Shown piece by piece: positions 2,158 through 49,233 of a stretch of DNA of 64,000 nucleotides. Each line of letters starts with the position of its first letter. The first letter of the stretch is position 1. The position numbers and the translations under genes were made by a program. The stretch comes from a phage, in NCBI GenBank assembly GCA_018509705.1, contig GCA_018509705.1_3630.1; one strand, 5' to 3'. A model generated the notes under the pieces. That model saw only the letters and a program-made list of their open reading frames with translations. It made no database searches and was not told the DNA's origin.

Positions 2158-2256
2158 GGTGCTAGGTGATGGAATCGAACCACCTATGTATTCAACGACT
2201 ACCTCGTCTATTTTCAGGATTAAAAATCCTCGCCCTTGCCAAAGGGCTTACCTAGC
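2158..2256 (-). tRNA. Aberrant tRNA-like element (good acceptor/D/T arms, irregular anticodon arm, over-long variable region); possible pseudo-tRNA
   Basis: Acceptor GCTAGGT/ACCTAGC pair, T-arm GGTGGTTCGATTCCATC, but anticodon stem does not close canonically and about 30 nt lie between anticodon arm and T-arm. Confidence 0.25.
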
Positions 2257-27679: not shown

Positions 27680-28441
27680 AAACTATAACTGCTCATGTAA
27701 AATCTATCTAAACGGGGAAACTCCAGAACGGACAATCCCGTGCTAAACGTAACAGAACTCCTGACCAAGAGGAGTCCTGAAATGAGAAAACAAATTCGTG
27801 ATTTTGAAGGTTATGAAATTGACGAGATGGGCAATGTTTATTGCACCCGCTACGAAAATGAAAGAATTATTCATTCGTGGGAAGAGATAAACACAGGTTA
27901 CCGTCTTGTTAGGATACGCAAGAACAAAAAGACTGTTTGCCTAAGGGTTCACAGACTTGTTGCTGAATCGTTCTTACCAAATCCAGACAATTTACCCTAT
28001 GTTAAGCACAAAGGGGACAACAGGAAAGATAACAGTGTATACAACCTTGAGTGGGGAGCTTGCCCAGACAATACGCAAGAAGGATACAACAACAACTGTT
28101 ATGCTTTTTACACAAAATGCCACGGTGTGAAAGCCACCAACAAATTAACTGGTGAGGTTTTCCACTTTAAAAGTCTGAGATGTTGTGCTGATGTTTTAGG
28201 AGTGGATAGAAAAAGAATATCTGCTATCCTGAAACGTGGTGCGCCTAATAACTATGATTACGAGTTCTGTTACGAAATGCCTAACGACTAACCGTGATGA
28301 ATGTAGCGGTGTAGGGTGTAAGCCGATGACACTCGAAATGGTAGACACACTAAGTGTGAAGATATAGTCTGATCTGCATGGGAACATGCAGCAGCACGTA
28401 AAGGTGCGGGGGTGGACTTGCGAACCACCCTGAACATAATG
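27680..28441 (+). mobile_element. putative group I intron in nrdD carrying an HNH homing endonuclease
   Basis: Splitting ...TSMG | CRSFL...; upstream exon ends in T, intron ends in G (28441). Confidence 0.6.
27740..28291 (+). CDS. HNH homing endonuclease (intron-encoded)
   Basis: IDEMGNVYCTRYE ... HRLVAESF ... VKHKGDNRKDNSVYNLEWG typical of intron HNH endonucleases. Confidence 0.65.
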   Translation: MLNVTELLTKRSPEMRKQIRDFEGYEIDEMGNVYCTRYENERIIHSWEEINTGYRLVRIRKNKKTVCLRVHRLVAESFLPNPDNLPYVKHKGDNRKDNSVYNLEWGACPDNTQEGYNNNCYAFYTKCHGVKATNKLTGEVFHFKSLRCCADVLGVDRKRISAILKRGAPNNYDYEFCYEMPND

Positions 28442-29404
28442 TGTAGAAGTTTCTTATCGAAATATAGCGACCCTGTAACAGGCGAGGAGAAATACCTTGG
28501 CAGATTTAACTTAGGCGTTGTTAGCCTTAACCTGCCAATGATTGCGGCAAAAGCTAAAACGGAAGGTGTTGATTTCTTTGCAGTTCTTGACGAATACCTG
28601 GATCTTGCATACGAGGCTCACCTTGTAAGGGTTAACCGTCTAAAAGGAACAAAGGCAGGGCAGAACCCTATCATGTGGTGTGAAGGCGCTCTTGCTCGCC
28701 TGGATCCTGAAGAGAGTATTGATAAACTCTTCTATGACGGGTACGCTTCCATCAGTATTGGGTATATTGGTGTGTATGAAACCTGTCAGATTTTGGGCAG
28801 GGAGGGTGACAAGGCTTTAGCTCTTGGAATACTACAGCACATGAGAGATGCTTGTGAGCGATACAAGAAGGAAAGTAGACTAGCGTTTAGCTTGTACGGC
28901 ACTCCTTCTGAGAGTCTATGCTATAAAGCTGCAACCTGTCTGGATCGTGAATATCCTGAAGTGTTGAAGCACGAGCATGAATATCTCACCAACAGTTTCC
29001 ATCAGCCAGTATGGATCAATAGCTCTCCTTTTGATAAGTGGGAGTATGAAGAAGGTTTTGCTATGATATCCTCTGGTGGCAACATCGGATACGTAGAGAC
29101 ACCAAATCTGAAAAACAACTTAGATGCTTTGGAAGCTCTTGTTGATTTCGGATATAAACACATTATGTATTTTGGTATCAACCAGCCTGTGGATAAATGT
29201 CTTAAGTGTGGTTTCTCTGGTGAGTTCAGTGCAACAGCTAAAGGGTTCTGCTGCCCTGCGTGCGGATGCCACGATGAACAATATATCTCAGTGATCCGAA
29301 GAGTGTCTGGATACCTTTCCAGTCCTAACTCCCGTCCTTACAATAAAGGTAAGCAAGCGGAAGTTATAGAACGGGTTAAGCACTACGGAAGTTGTGGTTG
29401 CTGA
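28442..29404 (+). CDS. nrdD: NrdD exon 3 (glycyl-radical domain and C-terminal zinc site)
   Basis: RRVSGYLSSP glycyl-radical motif; CLKCG...CPACGC zinc cluster. Confidence 0.75.
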   Translation, partial: CRSFLSKYSDPVTGEEKYLGRFNLGVVSLNLPMIAAKAKTEGVDFFAVLDEYLDLAYEAHLVRVNRLKGTKAGQNPIMWCEGALARLDPEESIDKLFYDGYASISIGYIGVYETCQILGREGDKALALGILQHMRDACERYKKESRLAFSLYGTPSESLCYKAATCLDREYPEVLKHEHEYLTNSFHQPVWINSSPFDKWEYEEGFAMISSGGNIGYVETPNLKNNLDALEALVDFGYKHIMYFGINQPVDKCLKCGFSGEFSATAKGFCCPACGCHDEQYISVIRRVSGYLSSPNSRPYNKGKQAEVIERVKHYGSCGC

Positions 29405-29470
29405 TACTTGACAAAAGCCACAAGGATGTGGCACCCTTAGTTCAAAGACGAGAACTAAGAGGATTCAGCA

Positions 29471-30631
29471 GTGAGAAAACTTACAACCGAAGATTTTATA
29501 GAGGGGGCGAAAGCAGTTCATGGTGATAAATATGATTATTCCAAAGTCAAATATGTGGGTGCACACACCAAGATTGTAATTATATGCCCTGAGCATGGAG
29601 AATTTAAGAAAACTCTTGGAGATCACCTCCGTAAAAAACAGGGTTGCCCAAAATGTCAGATTGAAGCAGAAAGAGCGGCTTCTGCTGAAAAATTTAAAGC
29701 GGAGGCCGAGGCTAAGTATAATTATAAATATGATTACTCTAAGGTAGAGTATGTAAATGCTAAAACTAAAGTTGTGATTGTTTGTCCTGTTCACGGCGAG
29801 TTTGAGCAAAAGCCTGATAACCATCTCCGCGAGGGGGGTTGCCGTAAGTGTGGAGGAACTGAGAGAAAGACTACTGAAGAGTGGATCGCTGAGGCAAAAG
29901 CGCTTCATGGCGATAAGTATGATTACTCTCTTGTAAATTATAAAACCGGTAATGATAAAGTGGAGATAATCTGTAATACATGTGGTGCTCACTTCCCACA
30001 AAGACCTCATGACCATGCACCAAGTGGAAAAGGTTGCCCCGAGTGCGGGAAGAAGAAGGTGGCCGAGGTTAGTAGGAAGACGCAGAGAAAGAAAGCATCT
30101 GAGGTAGCTAAAAGGTTTGAGGCAAGAGCCAGAGCTATCCATAAAGATAAATACGATTATTCCAGGGTGGAATATGTTAATAGGGAGACAGAGGTCACTA
30201 TCATCTGTCCGATTCACGGGGAGTTCACACAAAAACCGTTTGTCCACATCAACCAAAAAGCTGGCTGTCAAAAATGTGCTAAAGTCGGCTTCTTATCTCA
30301 TGAACATGGTAGCCTTTATATCATGGTTGACGATCTGGAAGTACCAACTATGATGAAAATTGGTGTGAGTGTCCGGGTAGATGAACGAAGAAAAGATGTG
30401 TTAAAAAGAGCTAAAAAAGCTGGTGCTAGATTCTCTGATCTACATGTTATAAAAACTTGGGAAGGAACAACAGACGACATGCAAACTTTAGAAAAAGCTA
30501 TGCACCAAGCCTTGAGCCAATACAAAATCAACTTCACAGAGAAGTTTGATGGCTGTCGAGAGTTCTTCTACTACAGACCGGAGGTGTTCAGCATAGTGGA
30601 AGCAGCGTATAAAGAGATCTGCGGTAAATGA
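29471..30631 (+). CDS. free-standing homing-endonuclease-like protein: four zinc-ribbon repeats plus C-terminal T5orf172/GIY-YIG-like domain
   Basis: Four repeats of HGDKYDYS-x-V-x-Y...CPxHGEF...GCxxC; C-terminal LYIMVDD...KIGVSVR. Confidence 0.55.
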   Translation: MRKLTTEDFIEGAKAVHGDKYDYSKVKYVGAHTKIVIICPEHGEFKKTLGDHLRKKQGCPKCQIEAERAASAEKFKAEAEAKYNYKYDYSKVEYVNAKTKVVIVCPVHGEFEQKPDNHLREGGCRKCGGTERKTTEEWIAEAKALHGDKYDYSLVNYKTGNDKVEIICNTCGAHFPQRPHDHAPSGKGCPECGKKKVAEVSRKTQRKKASEVAKRFEARARAIHKDKYDYSRVEYVNRETEVTIICPIHGEFTQKPFVHINQKAGCQKCAKVGFLSHEHGSLYIMVDDLEVPTMMKIGVSVRVDERRKDVLKRAKKAGARFSDLHVIKTWEGTTDDMQTLEKAMHQALSQYKINFTEKFDGCREFFYYRPEVFSIVEAAYKEICGK

Positions 30632-46474: not shown

Positions 46475-47235
46475 CACACAATTAGCTACCCGGCTAAAGT
46501 GCTGGGAGCACCTATAACACATCTTTCAACTAAATTTCCCACCACCACAATCACTTACCTCCCACACATGACTGTTTGCTTGTTTAGTGAGCAGTCATGC
46601 CTTGACATTCTTGCCTATCCTGATAAAATTAAGTTCTTCTCTTTTCTTTTACCGAGTAATTCGGGTTTTCTGTTCTCTTCGGTTTGAAGGGGGTATGGAG
46701 ATACACCTGAGTGAACAGGGTGAACAACCGAACCATTGGCTATGGCATTAGCATGGCGAAGCGGACGGGTGACGAAAGAGGGGCCGGAGGACACCAGTCA
46801 CTGCCATATGATATATGGGTGATAACCTGAAGAATCTGAATAAGTGTTTAAGTACCAGTCAGAGGAAAAGGTGAATGGTAGCTGAAGGGGAGGGGGGTTT
46901 CTTGTATCTTTAATTTGTATATTATGTATACACTTGTAAACCAATTTCATCTGAATCTGTTTACCACACAAAGTGGATAGAGACAAATATTACCTATTAA
47001 ACTTGAATTATTTATAGAAAATACCACAACACCACTTAAGTCTTTGATTTTACACACAAATCCTGCAGATATTCAACCTCCATATTTAACATACTTGTAA
47101 CATATTCCATACTCTACCTGCCTGATCAATTTCCCCAACTACATCCCCCATATTTTCCCTGTCTGTACTACCCCTGCCCCGCCGGGAGTCCCGTCATATC
47201 TGGCTTTCCAGCAAATATCACACCCACAAATATCA

Positions 47236-47290
47236 TTGCCTGAAGAGGGTTTCATCCCATAATACCTGCCTTGCCTGAAGAGGGTTTCAT
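47236..47290. repeat. 20-bp direct repeat x2 (TTGCCTGAAGAGGGTTTCAT), 15-bp spacer
   Basis: Copies at 47236-47255 and 47271-47290. Confidence 0.7.
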
Positions 47291-47957
47291 ACGCCACGTA
47301 AATTTTTTAATTGACCCCTCCCCGCCGCCGGAAAGGTTGGCTTTTCTCGCACAGACCTGAAGAGTCAGCCAGAAATATCTGAATAGGCCCAATTCTACCC
47401 CGATTTTGACCTGACCTACAGGAGCGCTGCCCTGTCAGGAGCCGTAGCGACTGGAGTGCTGCCAGGCGGACGAAATGGGAATACTTCTCATTCTTATAAC
47501 AATTCTCAAATATCGAGGCAGTGAGGCAAATTAATAGGCCAGGCCGTTCACACAGTGGCACAACATTTGCAACCTATCCTGTGGGGATGAATGAGAATAC
47601 CTATCATTGTGAGAACCATTATCATTACGGGCAATTTAACATAATACCCATTATGCGCACCACTGGCGATACATACAGGGATTGATAACATGGGTTACTG
47701 TTTACGCACATAACAATTATATTTCTTACCATTTGTGTGGGATATAGTTAGCAGCCGATAGATTAGATATTAACCTGCAGACTTCTGACCGTCCAGACGT
47801 CTAAACGCCCACACACCAAGGATTATACATACACTCCTGAATGTAAACAGGGCCGCAAAAATGCTACCATACAAGCTTGTAAATTTTTCATGCAGCACTT
47901 GACAAAGAGGAGAAAAACTTGTCTGACATAATGTGACCTAACTGACACAACATGACA

Positions 47958-48048
47958 CTTTTACACACCTATTAGTTTACACACTGGATTGTTTACATTC
48001 CTGATTGTTCACATGCTAACCATTTACATGATTGACTGTTTACACACC
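47958..48048. repeat. Iteron array: six TTTACA/TTCACA-centred repeats with 15-16 bp periodicity
   Basis: Motif recurs at about 47961, 47977, 47993, 48008, 48024, 48040. Confidence 0.6.
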
Positions 48049-48057
48049 GATAATCAG

Positions 48058-48307
48058 CCATGCCATTCGTTTGCATGACAATAATTATACATGACAATAA
48101 TCGCACTGATTATAATTAGCATGACATAATATAAAAGCAGGGCAACTATTAGCAGATCTATAGTTGCCTTGCTTGTCATGTCATGATTAACTAAATACAA
48201 GGCAACTATGATCTGATTAATAGTTTGCAGACAAACTATCACGGGGGTGATGGTTACTGCTTTTATATTATGTCGCGACTCCGTCGCGCCATGCCATTCG
48301 TTTGCAT
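48058..48307. repeat. Composite element: perfect 19-bp direct repeats flanking a 212-bp AT-rich core full of inverted repeats
   Basis: CCATGCCATTCGTTTGCAT at 48058-48076 and 48289-48307; inner palindromes GGCAACTAT-N11-ATAGTTGCC and ACATAATATAAAAGCAG/CTGCTTTTATATTATGT. Confidence 0.6.
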
Positions 48308-48921
48308 AGTTGCCTTATTGTTACAGATAAAATAATTGTATTGTTAATTATTTCTTATCTTTCTATTAGTCATCTAATGATTTCAGTTAATATAGTAACG
48401 TACAGTAAACATTAGACGACTAAAGATTTCTCTGCTTATGGTAACCTAACGTGACAATTCCAGACTGTTTACGAAAAATGTTGACACCTGGGCCGATTTA
48501 TGTTATGCAGTTTACACGAATAATTATTTTATGCAGGTATTGACTATTCCGTTATTCTATGGTTGGAATAAATGCTTAGCAGGCTATAGAATGGCGAGCG
48601 TACGTAAATTCTGAGATCTGGCGGCTATAGTTATACTCGATTTTTCACGTAGAAAACGCTTTTGTAGTTATGTAAGTGTATGACTTATAAAGATTTTTAG
48701 TTGTTGACAAGCTATTGAAGATATGCATCAGGTTAAATTTTGTGCAAATGCTGCATTATGTGCAATTTTGGAAGGAAAAACGTGTAAAAATGGCCCTGCT
48801 ACCACACAATGAAAAATTATGCAATAGTTATTTTATATGTATGTTTGTACAGTGGGGTTAATTGCTGGCTTGTTGATTATTCCATTTGCCAGGCGGGGCC
48901 ATTTGTGGTAGGAAAAGAGGA

Positions 48922-48950
48922 GACAAAAAGAAAGGGGCTTTAAGCCCCTG
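48922..48950 (-). terminator. Rho-independent terminator closing the minus-strand early block
   Basis: AGGGGCTTTAAGCCCCT hairpin followed by T-run on minus strand. Confidence 0.6.
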
Positions 48951-48968
48951 ACCGTGCACCTTGTTGTA

Positions 48969-49233
48969 TTATTTGTTGCTCATCCAGTTTTCCCAAGCTG
49001 CCTGATAATCTGCCTCACTACGGCGGATCTCTTCTTGCTCTTCAAGGCGGATCTCTTCTTCCAGGTACCCCAAGATGTCAGCCTTTTTGGTCTGGCGTAA
49101 CATCCAATCATCTTTTTTACGAGTGAAGATCTTATAAGCTTTCTCGCAAACCTCTTTTTTGCTACCTTTCTGGACTTCAAGAATTCTGTAGGCCATGTAC
49201 TGAACTAATTTAAGCTGATCCAGACGTTTCATG
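48969..49233 (-). CDS. hypothetical protein
   Basis: AAGAGGA RBS before ATG 49233. Confidence 0.45.

Follow-up and report, generated by a model that had tools for sequence, protein, structure and literature searches.

A strongly conserved hairpin module ~200 bases in from the left end of rV5-like phage genomes

In phage phi29, a gene situated a few hundred bases in from the left end of the genome encodes the packaging RNA (pRNA), a structured element of ~120–170 nt in which a helix closes a three-way junction. Only phi29-like podoviruses, which replicate by protein priming, possess pRNA; rV5-like phages presumably use ordinary terminases. The injection-stop-signal region of T5 lies ~10 kb in, after the pre-early genes, a position that suits two-step injection; it is non-coding, rich in repeats and palindromes, contains DnaA-box-like repeats and is conserved above the neighbouring genes. 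T7 carries a hairpin that we take to lie ~190 bp from its terminal repeat. Terminal repeats need to be duplicated before packaging, and a hairpin form of the DNA occurs during T7 infection, according to the statement in PMC4281155 that cites Chung et al. (1990). In the plasmid RSF1010, two ssi (single-strand initiation) sequences in inverted orientation become exposed when the origin oriV is unwound, and the plasmid primase needs the hairpins that they form (PMC8567376). Direct repeats brought together by an intervening hairpin are a substrate for precise deletion by slipped-strand mispairing (cf. PMC10166460, on mitochondrial DNA). As for rV5-like phages, Kropinski et al. labelled the region considered here merely "non-coding", could not define an origin by skew analysis, noted that the primase–helicase is similar to Podoviridae primase/helicases, and expected bidirectional terminators between genes 163 and 164, which were not found. 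Terminal repeats of 458/459 bp have been reported (PMC6563267, PMC7471380), and we came across no published mapping of a replication origin or a packaging signal in rV5-like or phAPEC8-like phages.

The DNA analysed here, a 64-kb stretch hereafter called the window, is that of an rV5-like phage (Vequintavirus). Its direct terminal repeat (DTR) was placed by homology to EdH4, which begins and ends with one and the same 459-bp sequence, and to Gotham, whose record annotates a repeat_region at 1–459; the boundary sequences were located in the window. About 200 bases inside the left genome end lies a hairpin module that is strongly conserved and previously undescribed (the literature searched contained no description of it): 20-bp repeats and a palindromic core form a single-copy non-coding module, which is part of a ~2-kb terminal control region of rV5-like genomes. 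The order in the window is DTR, short iteron arrays, first repeat copy (DR1), variable AT-rich module, ~150-nt core and second repeat copy (DR2), as follows:

47465–47923, + strand: DTR, 459 bp, present here in a single copy, as in a concatemer junction.
47924–48056, + strand: short-repeat arrays following the DTR, with three copies of TGACAY (at 47924, 47943 and 47953) and then six of TTTACA/TTCACA.
48057–48076, + strand: DR1, copy 1 of the direct repeat GCCATGCCATTCGTTTGCAT.
48077–48120, + strand: variable module, with two copies of CATGACAATAAT in the window and a perfect TATAAT at 48111–48116.
48123–48140, + strand: IR-L, left arm of the 18-bp inverted repeat, GACATAATATAAAAGCAG.
48135–48174, + strand: palindrome 1, AAGCAGGGCAACTAT-N10-ATAGTTGCCTTGCTT, with one G·U pair on the + strand and a GATC site in the loop.
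48198–48228, + strand: palindrome 2, CAAGGCAACTAT-N10-ATAGTTTGC.
48234–48255, + strand: hairpin B, AACTATCAC-GGGG-GTGATGGTT, followed by ACTGCTTTTATATT, terminator-like on the + strand.
48257–48274, + strand: IR-R, right arm of the inverted repeat, CTGCTTTTATATTATGTC.
48275–48287, + strand: GC-rich mini-palindrome linker, GCGACTCCGTCGC, whose A5-4-like counterpart is GCTCCCTACGGTCGC.
48288–48307, + strand: DR2, copy 2 of the direct repeat, 100% identical to DR1.

All the elements listed in the first-pass annotation of this DNA are present in the window, with three small corrections. The direct repeats are perfect, as it had stated, but 20 bp long instead of 19, the two copies (48057–48076 and 48288–48307) being 231 bp apart start to start with 211 bp between them. 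The first palindrome is GGCAACTAT-N10-ATAGTTGCC (48141–48149/48160–48168), its spacer having been given as N11. The second copy of the palindrome motif reported for the interval is GGCAACTAT at 48201–48209, partnered by a degenerate ATAGTTTGC at 48220–48228, and the long-range inverted repeat turned out to be perfect over 18 nt, with 116 nt separating its arms (48123–48140 and 48257–48274). In addition, an extra ATAGTTGCC at 48306–48314 overlaps the end of DR2, whose last bases together with AGTTGCC create a fourth GGCAACTAT site, on the − strand. Read together with the T before it, IR-L gives TGaCATAAT, a sequence of the extended −10 promoter type. In the minimum-energy fold, palindromes 1 and 2 pair together into one long hairpin A (~48142–48228). 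The hairpins of the core form a Y, with an A/T-rich stem of 18 bp closing it. In Vequintavirus, a T-rich tail follows hairpin B by 5 nt on the + strand, and TTTATATT follows palindrome 1 on the − strand.

A chance origin of the repeats, the inverted repeat and the palindromes can be excluded. The 20-mer has two matches at ≤3 mismatches in the window (0.02 expected; none of 100 shuffles reached two), the 18-mer likewise two (0.06 expected; 0/100 shuffles) and GGCAACTAT five (0.49 expected), four of which lie in the repeat/core locus. Folded as RNA, positions 48123–48290 reach −79 kcal/mol (z = −12.1), while the 251-nt interval folded as DNA reaches −57.5 kcal/mol (z = −9.2). The fold of the + strand was more stable than that of the − strand in every distinct sequence compared, by 6.4–15.5 kcal/mol in Vequintavirus, ~14 in phAPEC8-like phages and 0.4–2.8 in A5-4-like phages, in whose cores the strand bias is nearly absent.

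With respect to the genome end, the first base of IR-L in the window lies 200 bp inward of the DTR (199 nt between), and the gap between the end of the DTR and IR-L is 197–307 nt across Vequintavirus variants. Mt1B1_P17, a Phapecoctavirus and a member of another subfamily, has an exact terminal repeat of 328 bp, and its homologous core begins 188 bp inside that repeat. A stable neighbourhood with the DTR, as a terminal-repeat processing element would have, was thus found in the relatives with defined ends. The bases just past the DTR boundary resemble the outer ends of the inverted-repeat arms, a likeness that co-varies between subfamilies and provides a weak lead. The module sits in a low-GC non-coding stretch (GC 0.31–0.39) adjoining the iteron arrays, whose TTTACA/TTCACA units recur with a ~16-bp period at 47960–48044; copy number and sequence of these arrays are mosaic among relatives (median identity 64%). 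Iterons at 47960–48044, AT-rich DNA and hairpins together make up the arrangement of an origin or ssi region, a likeness of architecture only. GC skew shifts in the terminal region, a shift confounded by the switch of transcription direction.

Other readings of the local sequence were discarded. As DnaA boxes, the iterons match at most 8/9 positions, and the relaxed consensus, with 202 matching sites in the window, is uninformative. The 36-aa ORF at 48225–48335 is broken by a 1-nt insertion in Murica (in the GGGGG loop) and by another in Alma (before DR2), and the − strand ORF at 48054–48242 crosses the non-homologous variable module. A sigma-54 promoter in the 20-mer was dismissed by inspection, the spacing being wrong and the GG missing. 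ARAGORN detected no tRNA or tmRNA at the module, and a search of Rfam 15 at a permissive E-value returned only sub-threshold, generic (microRNA-type) hairpins (best score 29.5 bits, against a gathering score of 249). The neighbouring 87-aa and 139-aa proteins have no supported Pfam domain and belong to PHROGs of unknown function; the 87-aa protein is labelled "FtsK translocase" in some records.

The module is more conserved than its surroundings. Across 18 relatives, the median identity is 99.4% for the core and 100% for both DR1 and the DR2 block (48275–48324), compared with 95.4% for the DTR, 91.3% for the right flank, ~93% for a neighbouring gene and 64–67% for the adjacent mosaic segments. 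DR1 is 100% conserved in 16 of the 18, FV3 and L021 (95%) having a C7A variant that L021 carries in both 20-mer copies. The variable module, by contrast, has a median identity of 67% and exists in at least five other versions in relatives (41–89 bp). Within the core, the arms are invariant and the spacers variable: ATGACATAAT is unchanged in every core-bearing Vequintavirus sequence examined, and the variation within Vequintavirus is almost entirely limited to loops, bulges and the junction. Each genome carries a single locus, with exactly two 20-mers in nearly all of 120 Vequintavirus records. Note that V18 apparently lacks the iterons and DR1, but its record looks error-prone.

A homologous multi-hairpin core, with a different sequence and different arms, is found in A5-4-like phages and in phAPEC8-like phages, the latter belonging to another subfamily. 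In the two helices common to the three lineages, 100% of the cells pair and 15 of the 22 pairs differ on both sides, a result reached by none of 500 shuffles; since the 22-pair mini-alignment was registered by hand and the arms are perfect inverted repeats within each lineage, this count shows that pairing is kept, not position-by-position homology. RNAalifold, run on an unsupervised alignment, recovered the closing stem, with 5 of 13 pairs compensatory. Hairpin B has homologues in phAPEC8 (AACCATC-ACC-GATGGTT) and A5-4 (GGTTATC-ACC-GATGACC): three of the seven pairs differ on both sides between lineages, and one C-G pair has changed to U·G, which pairs on the + strand only. Hairpin A takes three unrelated sequences within A5-4-like phages, all of them foldable. 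The palindromes differ as well, with GATAAC-N5-GTTATC in A5-4, unrelated hairpins in LTH01 and W70, and another palindrome in phAPEC8. A5-4-like phages possess their own co-varying direct-repeat pair; no robust pair was found in phAPEC8-like phages. As judged from these comparisons, the repeat/core architecture predates the split between Vequintavirus and A5-4-like phages, and the module is inherited vertically across subfamilies. The same fold thus arises from different sequences in three lineages, and better on the + strand, which argues for a selected single-strand structure and not for a relic of transposition.

The first-pass annotation had proposed a search for empty sites, and this comparison proved informative: one was found, in FV3, where a single 20-mer lies between the left and right flanks and the core is missing. 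Because its flanks resemble those of core-bearing phages (96% identity), FV3 is best read as a repeat-mediated deletion, i.e. as a derived state and not as a site that was never occupied. FV3 is a viable, characterised phage that lacks the whole core; the core is therefore dispensable for plaque formation, and whatever it may do in replication or packaging must be redundant or do no more than raise fitness. The empty state occurs in only one of ~119 phages, and the exact empty-junction pattern gave no match in IMG/VR and metagenomes. Outside the group, the 291-bp region had no match in 5,426 complete E. coli genomes, the 20-mer none in 185,579 bacterial species genomes, and no copies of the module were found in other phage groups in IMG/VR and metagenomes, the 20-mer occurring in metagenomes in three rV5-like contigs and, by chance, inside one unrelated coding sequence. 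A loose pattern for distant homologues, TGTCGC-N5-9-GTCGCGCCA, produced in IMG/VR chance matches in GC-rich contigs, none of which had the inverted-repeat motif.

We tentatively propose, with somewhat less than even confidence, that the core is a cis-acting single-stranded DNA hairpin signal for replication or for the processing of concatemer ends and terminal repeats. The duplex adjoining the terminal repeat would be opened or displaced, whereupon the + strand would fold and serve as an initiation or priming signal; priming would then allow the displaced strand bearing the terminal repeat to be copied, or a fork to start beside the iterons. The 20-mers are probably paired sites for one sequence-specific factor, their identity being kept by selection, and, as they bracket a hairpin, they would also promote precise slipped-strand or short-homology deletion of the kind seen in FV3. 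It is conceivable, though rather unlikely, that the core represents a class of elements, not recognised until now, by which large DTR myoviruses regenerate their terminal repeats: once the strand bearing the repeat is displaced in the course of concatemer processing, the + strand hairpin, ~200 nt beyond the repeat, would nucleate priming so that the displaced repeat is copied, and the same end-processing protein would read the paired 20-mers and the boundary-like motif of the arms. A pRNA-like packaging RNA outside the phi29 group is a still more remote variant. Several points weigh against a single-stranded DNA signal. The proposal presupposes that the DNA becomes single-stranded and is primed or nicked at the core; FV3 is viable without the whole core and V18 apparently does without iterons and DR1; the variation in distance from the DTR (197–307 bp) implies no fixed geometry; the cores of A5-4-like phages hardly prefer either strand; promoter-like elements at or just before the left arm, and G·U wobble pairs, suit an RNA reading at least equally well; and the 20-mers, which have no robust equivalent in phAPEC8-like phages, receive no mechanistic explanation.

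That last comparison with RNA introduces the main rival to a single-stranded DNA hairpin signal, an appreciable if minor possibility: the core would be the gene for a structured small RNA of ~130–150 nt, its promoter overlapping IR-L or lying immediately before it and directing transcription to the right (+ strand); the 5′ and 3′ ends of the RNA would pair in some lineages into the closing helix of a three-way junction, and its function could be regulatory or, by analogy with phi29 pRNA, related to packaging. The + strand folds better in all lineages and its stems are compatible with G·U pairing, but the promoter evidence is inconsistent. Indeed, promoter-like elements exist in every lineage and differ in position and quality: TGaCATAAT is invariant at the left arm in Vequintavirus, TATAAT at 48111–48116 would place the start at ~48123, the first base of the arm, the module variants of nom, isim and L021 contain TTAACA-N16-CATAAT, a −10-like hexamer follows TTGACA at a distance of 16 nt in four of four A5-4-like phages, and TATAAT occurs inside the left arm in phAPEC8 only. 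On the other side, the commonest Vequintavirus module has no −35 element, the A5-4-like −10 hexamers (TACATA, TATAAG, TACAAG) lack the conserved final T, the predicted starts fall at the beginning of the arm in some variants and downstream of the arm in others, and a sigma-70 scan returned five promoter-like sites in the region when 6.9 were expected from shuffles. At the other end of such an RNA, hairpin B followed by ACTGCTTTTATATT was flagged as terminator-like on the + strand, but this tail is restricted to Vequintavirus, no U-tract following any stem in A5-4-like and phAPEC8-like cores; moreover, a small RNA leaves the 20-mers and the constant neighbourhood of the DTR unexplained. The terminator-like signals could also be taken at face value, the core being a face-to-face pair of intrinsic terminators that insulates the convergent units and the terminal repeat/packaging region from read-through. 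Palindrome 1 with TTTATATTATG on the − strand is an annotated terminator in Murica and Alma, hairpin B with its T-rich tail is flagged on the + strand, bidirectional terminators are what Kropinski et al. expected between genes 163 and 164, and a redundant terminator would fit the dispensability seen in FV3. We nevertheless regard this as improbable: a strong bidirectional terminator already exists at 48931–48950, after the last − strand gene, and another at 47327–47341 on the + strand; the stems are conserved without a U-tract in A5-4-like and phAPEC8-like phages; the flanking genes of phAPEC8 are co-directional and not convergent; and ~230 bp of near-perfect conservation, with a co-varying 18-bp stem and a repeat pair, exceed what a terminator needs. 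More doubtful again is a double-stranded operator array, in which the GGCAACTAT palindromes and the 20-mers would bind a phage protein (small terminase, initiator or repressor-like regulator) and the hairpins would have no role. Four exact and two degenerate GGCAACTAT sites are clustered here, against one elsewhere in the 64-kb window, the invariance of the arms beside variable spacers would suit such an array, and two identical 20-mers co-varying as a pair resemble protein sites; yet the sequence and geometry of the palindromes differ between lineages while all of them fold, half-sites 19 bp apart centre to centre would be unusual for a dimeric operator, and strand-asymmetric G·U pairs are not expected if the duplex is what is recognised.

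The two readings that start from mobility fare worse. The first-pass annotation had seen in the layout the footprint of a transposed miniature element or a target for recombination or packaging. A site-specific recombinase acting on the 20-mers, with the core as an excisable or insertable cassette and FV3 as the excised state, would account for identical, directly repeated sites around a discrete segment, for the one site and two intact flanks of FV3, and for the presence of C7A in both copies in L021. This is highly improbable, however, given that the excised state is confined to one of ~119 phages, with no more empty junctions in IMG/VR or metagenomes, that recombinase core sites typically show a dyad symmetry not present in the 20-mer (whose only symmetry is the 4-bp ATGC...GCAT, and the A5-4-like counterpart has none), and that 20 bp of homology flanking a hairpin suffice for deletion without a recombinase. 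To our knowledge, no recombinase is known in virulent rV5-like phages, and none was present among the ten largest ORFs of the window. Of the recombination or packaging site, then, the location near a physical genome end was borne out, whereas recombination gained no positive support. The proposal of a MITE flanked by a target-site duplication was abandoned, as an extremely remote prospect. The order direct repeat, inverted repeat, direct repeat and the empty site of FV3 do resemble a MITE, but the element is single-copy in every genome and was not found in genomes of E. coli and other bacteria or in other phage groups, with the 18-mer and 20-mer confined to the module within the window and no dispersed copies. 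The arms do not abut the repeats in the way that terminal inverted repeats abut target-site duplications of 2–10 bp: 46 bp (41–89 in relatives) separate the left arm from DR1 and 13 bp the right arm from DR2. At 20 bp, moreover, the repeat is far longer than a typical target-site duplication. The architecture is old, being common to A5-4-like and phAPEC8-like phages, and Vequintavirus and A5-4-like phages each keep their own matching repeat pair, unlike passive target-site duplications; FV3, the sole empty genome, has flanks 96% identical to those of core-bearing phages and so offers no ancestral empty site.

A single-stranded DNA hairpin signal thus remains the reading that we tentatively prefer. 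Whichever reading applies, a discrete structured element of ~150 nt has been defined in rV5-like and phAPEC8-like phages, which belong to the E. coli phages most often isolated and most often used in therapy; it lies ~190–200 bp from the terminal repeat, exceeds the tested neighbouring gene and non-coding flanks in conservation, and shows covariation across two subfamilies. It provides a precise target for work on how the ends are formed, how replication starts or whether these phages make a small RNA, with the natural deletion of FV3 as a model for a test construct. Genome engineers should note that a hairpin between 20-bp repeats constitutes a built-in deletion hot spot. Were the core a regeneration element, it would supply a concrete cis element for the long-standing question of how short DTRs are duplicated.

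Among known systems, palindrome and direct-repeat deletion hot spots share with this locus the precise deletion seen in FV3; they explain the FV3 variant but not the existence or conservation of the module. MITEs likewise have direct repeats around inverted repeats, and one genome here is without the element, but the rV5-like module is single-copy, its arms are not terminal and its 20-bp repeats are under selection. The T5 injection-stop-signal region resembles it in being non-coding, rich in repeats and palindromes, near the left end, endowed with DnaA-box-like repeats and conserved above its neighbours; since no gene precedes the rV5-like region, a stop signal there would, unlike that of T5, have nothing to express. 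Like phi29 pRNA, the core is a structured element of ~120–170 nt with a three-way junction near the left end of a linear genome, but the two have no sequence or Rfam similarity, and a transcript of the rV5-like core is only predicted.

The parallels for the proposed mechanism are RSF1010 and T7. In the rV5-like module as in RSF1010 (ssiA/ssiB of oriV, PMC8567376), iterons and an AT-rich stretch are followed by an inverted repeat whose arms offer the same sequence on opposite strands beside a hairpin; in RSF1010 the single strand has to fold for this arrangement to work. The two have no similarity in sequence. Where RSF1010 has two ssi sites of 40 nt, rV5-like phages have 18-nt arms around a 116-nt multi-hairpin interior, the wobble pairs in hairpin B suit just one of the strands, and RepB′-like recognition would be hypothetical in these phages. 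The T7 group differs in that rV5-like phages are unrelated myoviruses without sequence similarity to it, that their element lies on the left-end side of the repeat and is dispensable in FV3, and that a hairpin intermediate has been seen in T7, whereas the rV5-like element is known from its sequence. Both, however, have a linear genome with a short DTR that occurs once per concatemer junction and is duplicated, a hairpin-forming sequence near that repeat, and flanking arrays of short repeats, as far as the T7 group is described in the accounts of Chung, Nardone & Hinkle (1990) given by PMC4281155 and PMC4925675.

The window comes from an rV5-like phage. The 1.5-kb region around the module had matches in 120 phage records, all of them Vequintavirus. 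Among these are 18 UNVERIFIED "Campylobacter phage" records (MG0656xx), which match at 75-94% identity, as E. coli phages do, are classified as Vequintavirus and are likely contaminated or mislabeled. To place the direct terminal repeat (DTR), we used Vequintavirus records deposited from an experimentally determined genome end. The first and last 459 bp of EdH4 are identical, a terminal repeat of 459 bp is annotated in the Gotham record, and terminal repeats of 458/459 bp with a single fixed packaging start have been reported (PMC6563267, PMC7471380). Mapped from relatives with known ends, the DTR occupies 47465-47923 in the window, which is therefore the concatemer-junction form of the genome. 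The first copy of the direct repeat (DR1) begins 134 bp, and the left arm of the inverted repeat (IR-L) 200 bp, inside the left end, in a stretch (about 46,900-48,960) that is entirely non-coding and sits between two convergent gene blocks. Kropinski et al. drew this region as a "non-coding" box and expected bidirectional terminators there, of which none were found; the genome was then believed to be circularly permuted.

The right-end side of the DTR (46900-47464) is likewise non-coding and has repeats of its own: there are four occurrences of CCTGAAGAG, among them two of a perfect 20-mer, TTGCCTGAAGAGGGTTTCAT (at 47236 and 47271), and CTGAAGAG recurs in the A5-4 non-coding region. These repeats are candidate right-end packaging or recognition signals. 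On the other side, a 44-aa hydrophobic ORF (48809-48943, plus strand), which varies among relatives, lies within the non-coding region and ends in a bidirectional terminator (48931-48950). Between this terminator and an 87-aa gene (48969-49232, minus strand), at about 48961, the window, nomo, Alma and EdH4 lack a segment of about 560 bp with a 139-aa ORF (PHROG 12277, a function-unknown family; no Pfam domain); MaxBurger, V5, Murica and the A5-4-like and phAPEC8-like phages carry it, flanked by similar terminator hairpins. Several GenBank records label the 87-aa gene "DNA translocase FtsK"; no Pfam match supports FtsK, its PHROG (11701) is a function-unknown family, and the label appears to be a propagated annotation error. 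Elsewhere in the window, ARAGORN detected, amid six ordinary tRNA genes, a tRNA-like gene of 99 nt whose anticodon has four bases (atcc), at 2158-2256 (minus strand). For the ORF at 28412-29404, the match to the anaerobic ribonucleotide reductase NrdD is confined to the C-terminal half (profile positions 263-562), and the next ORF (29471-30631) is homing-endonuclease-like (DUF723, zinc-finger and T5orf172 domains), which suggests that nrdD at 28412-30631 is split or invaded.

The first-pass annotation had described 19-bp direct repeats around a palindromic core. Every element was found in the window, with three small corrections: 20 bp instead of 19 for the direct repeats, N10 instead of N11 for the spacer of the first palindrome, and a perfect 18-nt match between the arms of the long-range inverted repeat. 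The second palindrome copy is present, albeit imperfect.

Repeats and palindromes of the module in the window
48057-48076 (DR1) and 48288-48307 (DR2): 20-bp direct repeat (20-mer), GCCATGCCATTCGTTTGCAT
48123-48140 and 48257-48274: left and right arms of the perfect 18-nt long-range inverted repeat
48141-48168: palindrome 1, GGCAACTAT-N10-ATAGTTGCC
48201-48228: palindrome 2, imperfect second copy of palindrome 1
48306-48314: additional palindrome half-site, overlapping the end of DR2

Dinucleotide-preserving shuffles of the window never reproduced the direct repeat, the inverted repeat or the palindrome motif, and the fold of the interval is far more stable than those of shuffled sequences (z = -12 as RNA, z = -9 as DNA). 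GATC (Dam) sites occur only twice in the core (48155-48158 and 48210-48213), in the loops of the two GGCAACTAT palindromes; they are not conserved in other lineages.

Across 18 relatives, the order of the segments is invariant.

Segment order, from the DTR rightward
1: end of the DTR
2: TGACAY repeats
3: TGTTTACA/TGTTCACG iterons, copy number varies
4: DR1
5: variable module, at least 6 versions, 41-89 bp
6: invariant core, starting ATGACATAAT
7: GC-rich linker, 13 bp
8: DR2, then AGTTGCCTTATTG

Median identity to the window is 99.4% for the core (48121-48274) and 100% both for DR1 and for the linker, DR2 and the next 17 nt, against 95.4% for the DTR, 91.3% for the right flank, about 93% for the neighboring 87-aa gene, 64% for the post-DTR repeats and 67% for the variable module. 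The module is therefore a near-perfectly conserved island among mosaic segments, under strong purifying selection. Nearly all of the few variable sites of the core fall in loops, bulges or the junction: the apex of the long hairpin is extended by a 33-bp insertion in LL12, A147 and V5, and a bulged T is deleted in LL12, while one metagenomic phage has an A inserted opposite that T.

The loci of deeper relatives were located by using the neighboring genes as anchors. In the A5-4-like Vequintavirinae, the architecture is kept in a homologous non-coding region of all four phages (A5-4, UPEC06, LTH01 and W70): the direct repeat CCATACTCTGGCAAT occurs twice, 406-427 bp apart, and a perfect 16-bp inverted repeat, GACACTATAAAACGAG, encloses 61-72 nt of hairpins. 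The stretch running from the right arm to the end of the second repeat is recognizably homologous to the window (CTCGTTTTATAGTGTC-GCTCCCTACGGTCGC-GCCACCT-CCATACTCTGGCAAT). The core of the phAPEC8-like phages (Phapecoctavirus, Stephanstirmvirinae) is homologous too; its arms are 24 nt long (ACATATAATGCTAATAATAAGCCA and partner), and between them lie a long palindrome and a small hairpin, AACCATC-ACC-GATGGTT, the latter matching AACTATCAC-GGGG-GTGATGGTT in the window and GGTTATC-ACC-GATGACC in A5-4. No robust direct-repeat pair was found in these phages. In one of these, Mt1B1_P17, the core begins 188 bp inside an exact 328-bp terminal repeat. The element thus adjoins the DTR in two subfamilies.

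What is conserved between lineages is pairing. The closing stem is perfect and at least 15 bp long in each lineage despite differing sequences, and was recovered by unsupervised MAFFT/RNAalifold with 5 of 13 pairs compensatory. In an alignment of the two helices common to the three lineages, registered by hand and thus showing that pairing is kept rather than that aligned positions are homologous, every cell pairs and 15 of the 22 pairs differ on both sides; none of 500 shuffles reached this level, and slid registers paired at 35-54%. Within the A5-4-like lineage alone, the long hairpin (hairpin A) has three unrelated sequences, all of which fold. The plus strand folds more stably than the minus strand in every distinct sequence, and a C-G to U·G change in the small hairpin (hairpin B) pairs on the plus strand only. 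The structure is therefore maintained through covariation, with a plus-strand bias, so that its functional form would be the folded plus strand (DNA or RNA) rather than duplex operator sites. We infer that the element acts in cis as a folded single strand.

We also considered whether the 20-mers are target-site duplications. The two copies are identical within each lineage, yet only about two-thirds of positions agree between lineages, and a C7A variant within Vequintavirus can sit in both copies, which points to selection or gene conversion, not decay. The 20-mer shows essentially no dyad symmetry and matches neither a sigma-54 nor a sigma-70 promoter; nothing in the window is complementary to it, and it plays no coding role. 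Most simply, the 20-mers would be a pair of binding sites recognized by a single factor.

Nearly all of the 120 Vequintavirus records have exactly two 20-mers, and none of the records listed has more. The empty-site comparison proposed in the first-pass annotation yielded one such site: only FV3 shows the left flank, one 20-mer and the right flank without the core, and its exact junction pattern did not occur elsewhere in IMG/VR or metagenomes. The FV3 left flank is 96% identical to that of core-bearing phages (e.g. isim and ECP2303), the right flank matches that of the metagenomic rV5-like phage L021, and the lone 20-mer is the C7A variant, which isim and A147 carry in DR1 and L021 in both 20-mers. 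The architecture long predates FV3, so the best reading of this site is a precise deletion from one 20-mer to the other; hairpins flanked by 20 bp of homology are known to be lost by slipped-strand deletion. It follows that the core is dispensable for plaque formation and that the 20-mers are recombinogenic. FV3, a single 2012 record, may also be a cloning or assembly artefact. V18 (KY683736, 1090-1140) seemingly lacks the iterons and DR1; 13 consecutive A mark the junction, the record has other oddities, and three substitutions break palindrome 1. Either V18 is a second deletion variant of natural origin or its assembly is poor.

Since the 20-mers are not target-site duplications, the MITE-like origin suggested in the first pass is extremely unlikely, and a site-specific excision cassette, as the FV3 junction might evoke, is very improbable. 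The strand bias leaves little room for a duplex operator array. Face-to-face terminators are a shade less improbable. The main rival, somewhat unlikely in our view, is that a promoter at the left arm drives rightward transcription of a structured small RNA: TGaCATAAT is invariant, TATAAT (48111-48116) would place the transcription start on the arm's first base, TTGACA is kept just upstream in the A5-4-like phages, and G·U pairs are typical of RNA. However, promoter and terminator signals differ between lineages. This inconsistency, the constant place beside the terminal repeat and iterons, and verified precedents (T7, RSF1010) lead us to favor, tentatively, a DNA-level role in replication or terminal-repeat processing.

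Terminal repeats need duplicating, and a hairpin DNA form has been observed in T7 infection (PMC4281155); at the RSF1010 origin, iterons occur together with two hairpin-forming priming signals in inverted orientation (PMC8567376), and the module adjoins iterons. In such a DNA-level role, strand displacement through the terminal repeat would expose the plus strand, the hairpin about 200 nt past the repeat would nucleate priming, and the displaced terminal repeat would then be copied. The first bases past the DTR boundary resemble the outer arm ends, a likeness noticed post hoc that co-varies between the two subfamilies: in the window (47923/47924; 48122-48130), boundary TGACATAATG versus arms TGACATAATA and GACATAATA; in Mt1B1_P17 (record positions 328/329; 516), boundary CAACATATCGCTA versus arms ACATATAATGCTA and ACATAGCGAGCTA. 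TGACATAAT occurs only twice in the 64-kb window, exactly at the DTR boundary and at the outer end of the left arm. This resemblance fits strand-displacement priming, as a weak lead.

No Rfam family matches the element, and we found no description of it in the literature searched. With a cis element now delimited and backed by covariation, end formation and the initiation of replication become directly testable in the rV5-like phages, a group in wide use. The element is a candidate, rather than a demonstrated member, of the families of hairpin signals found at origins or concatemer junctions, whose architectural features it shares and which, by analogy, it appears to resemble most in behavior.
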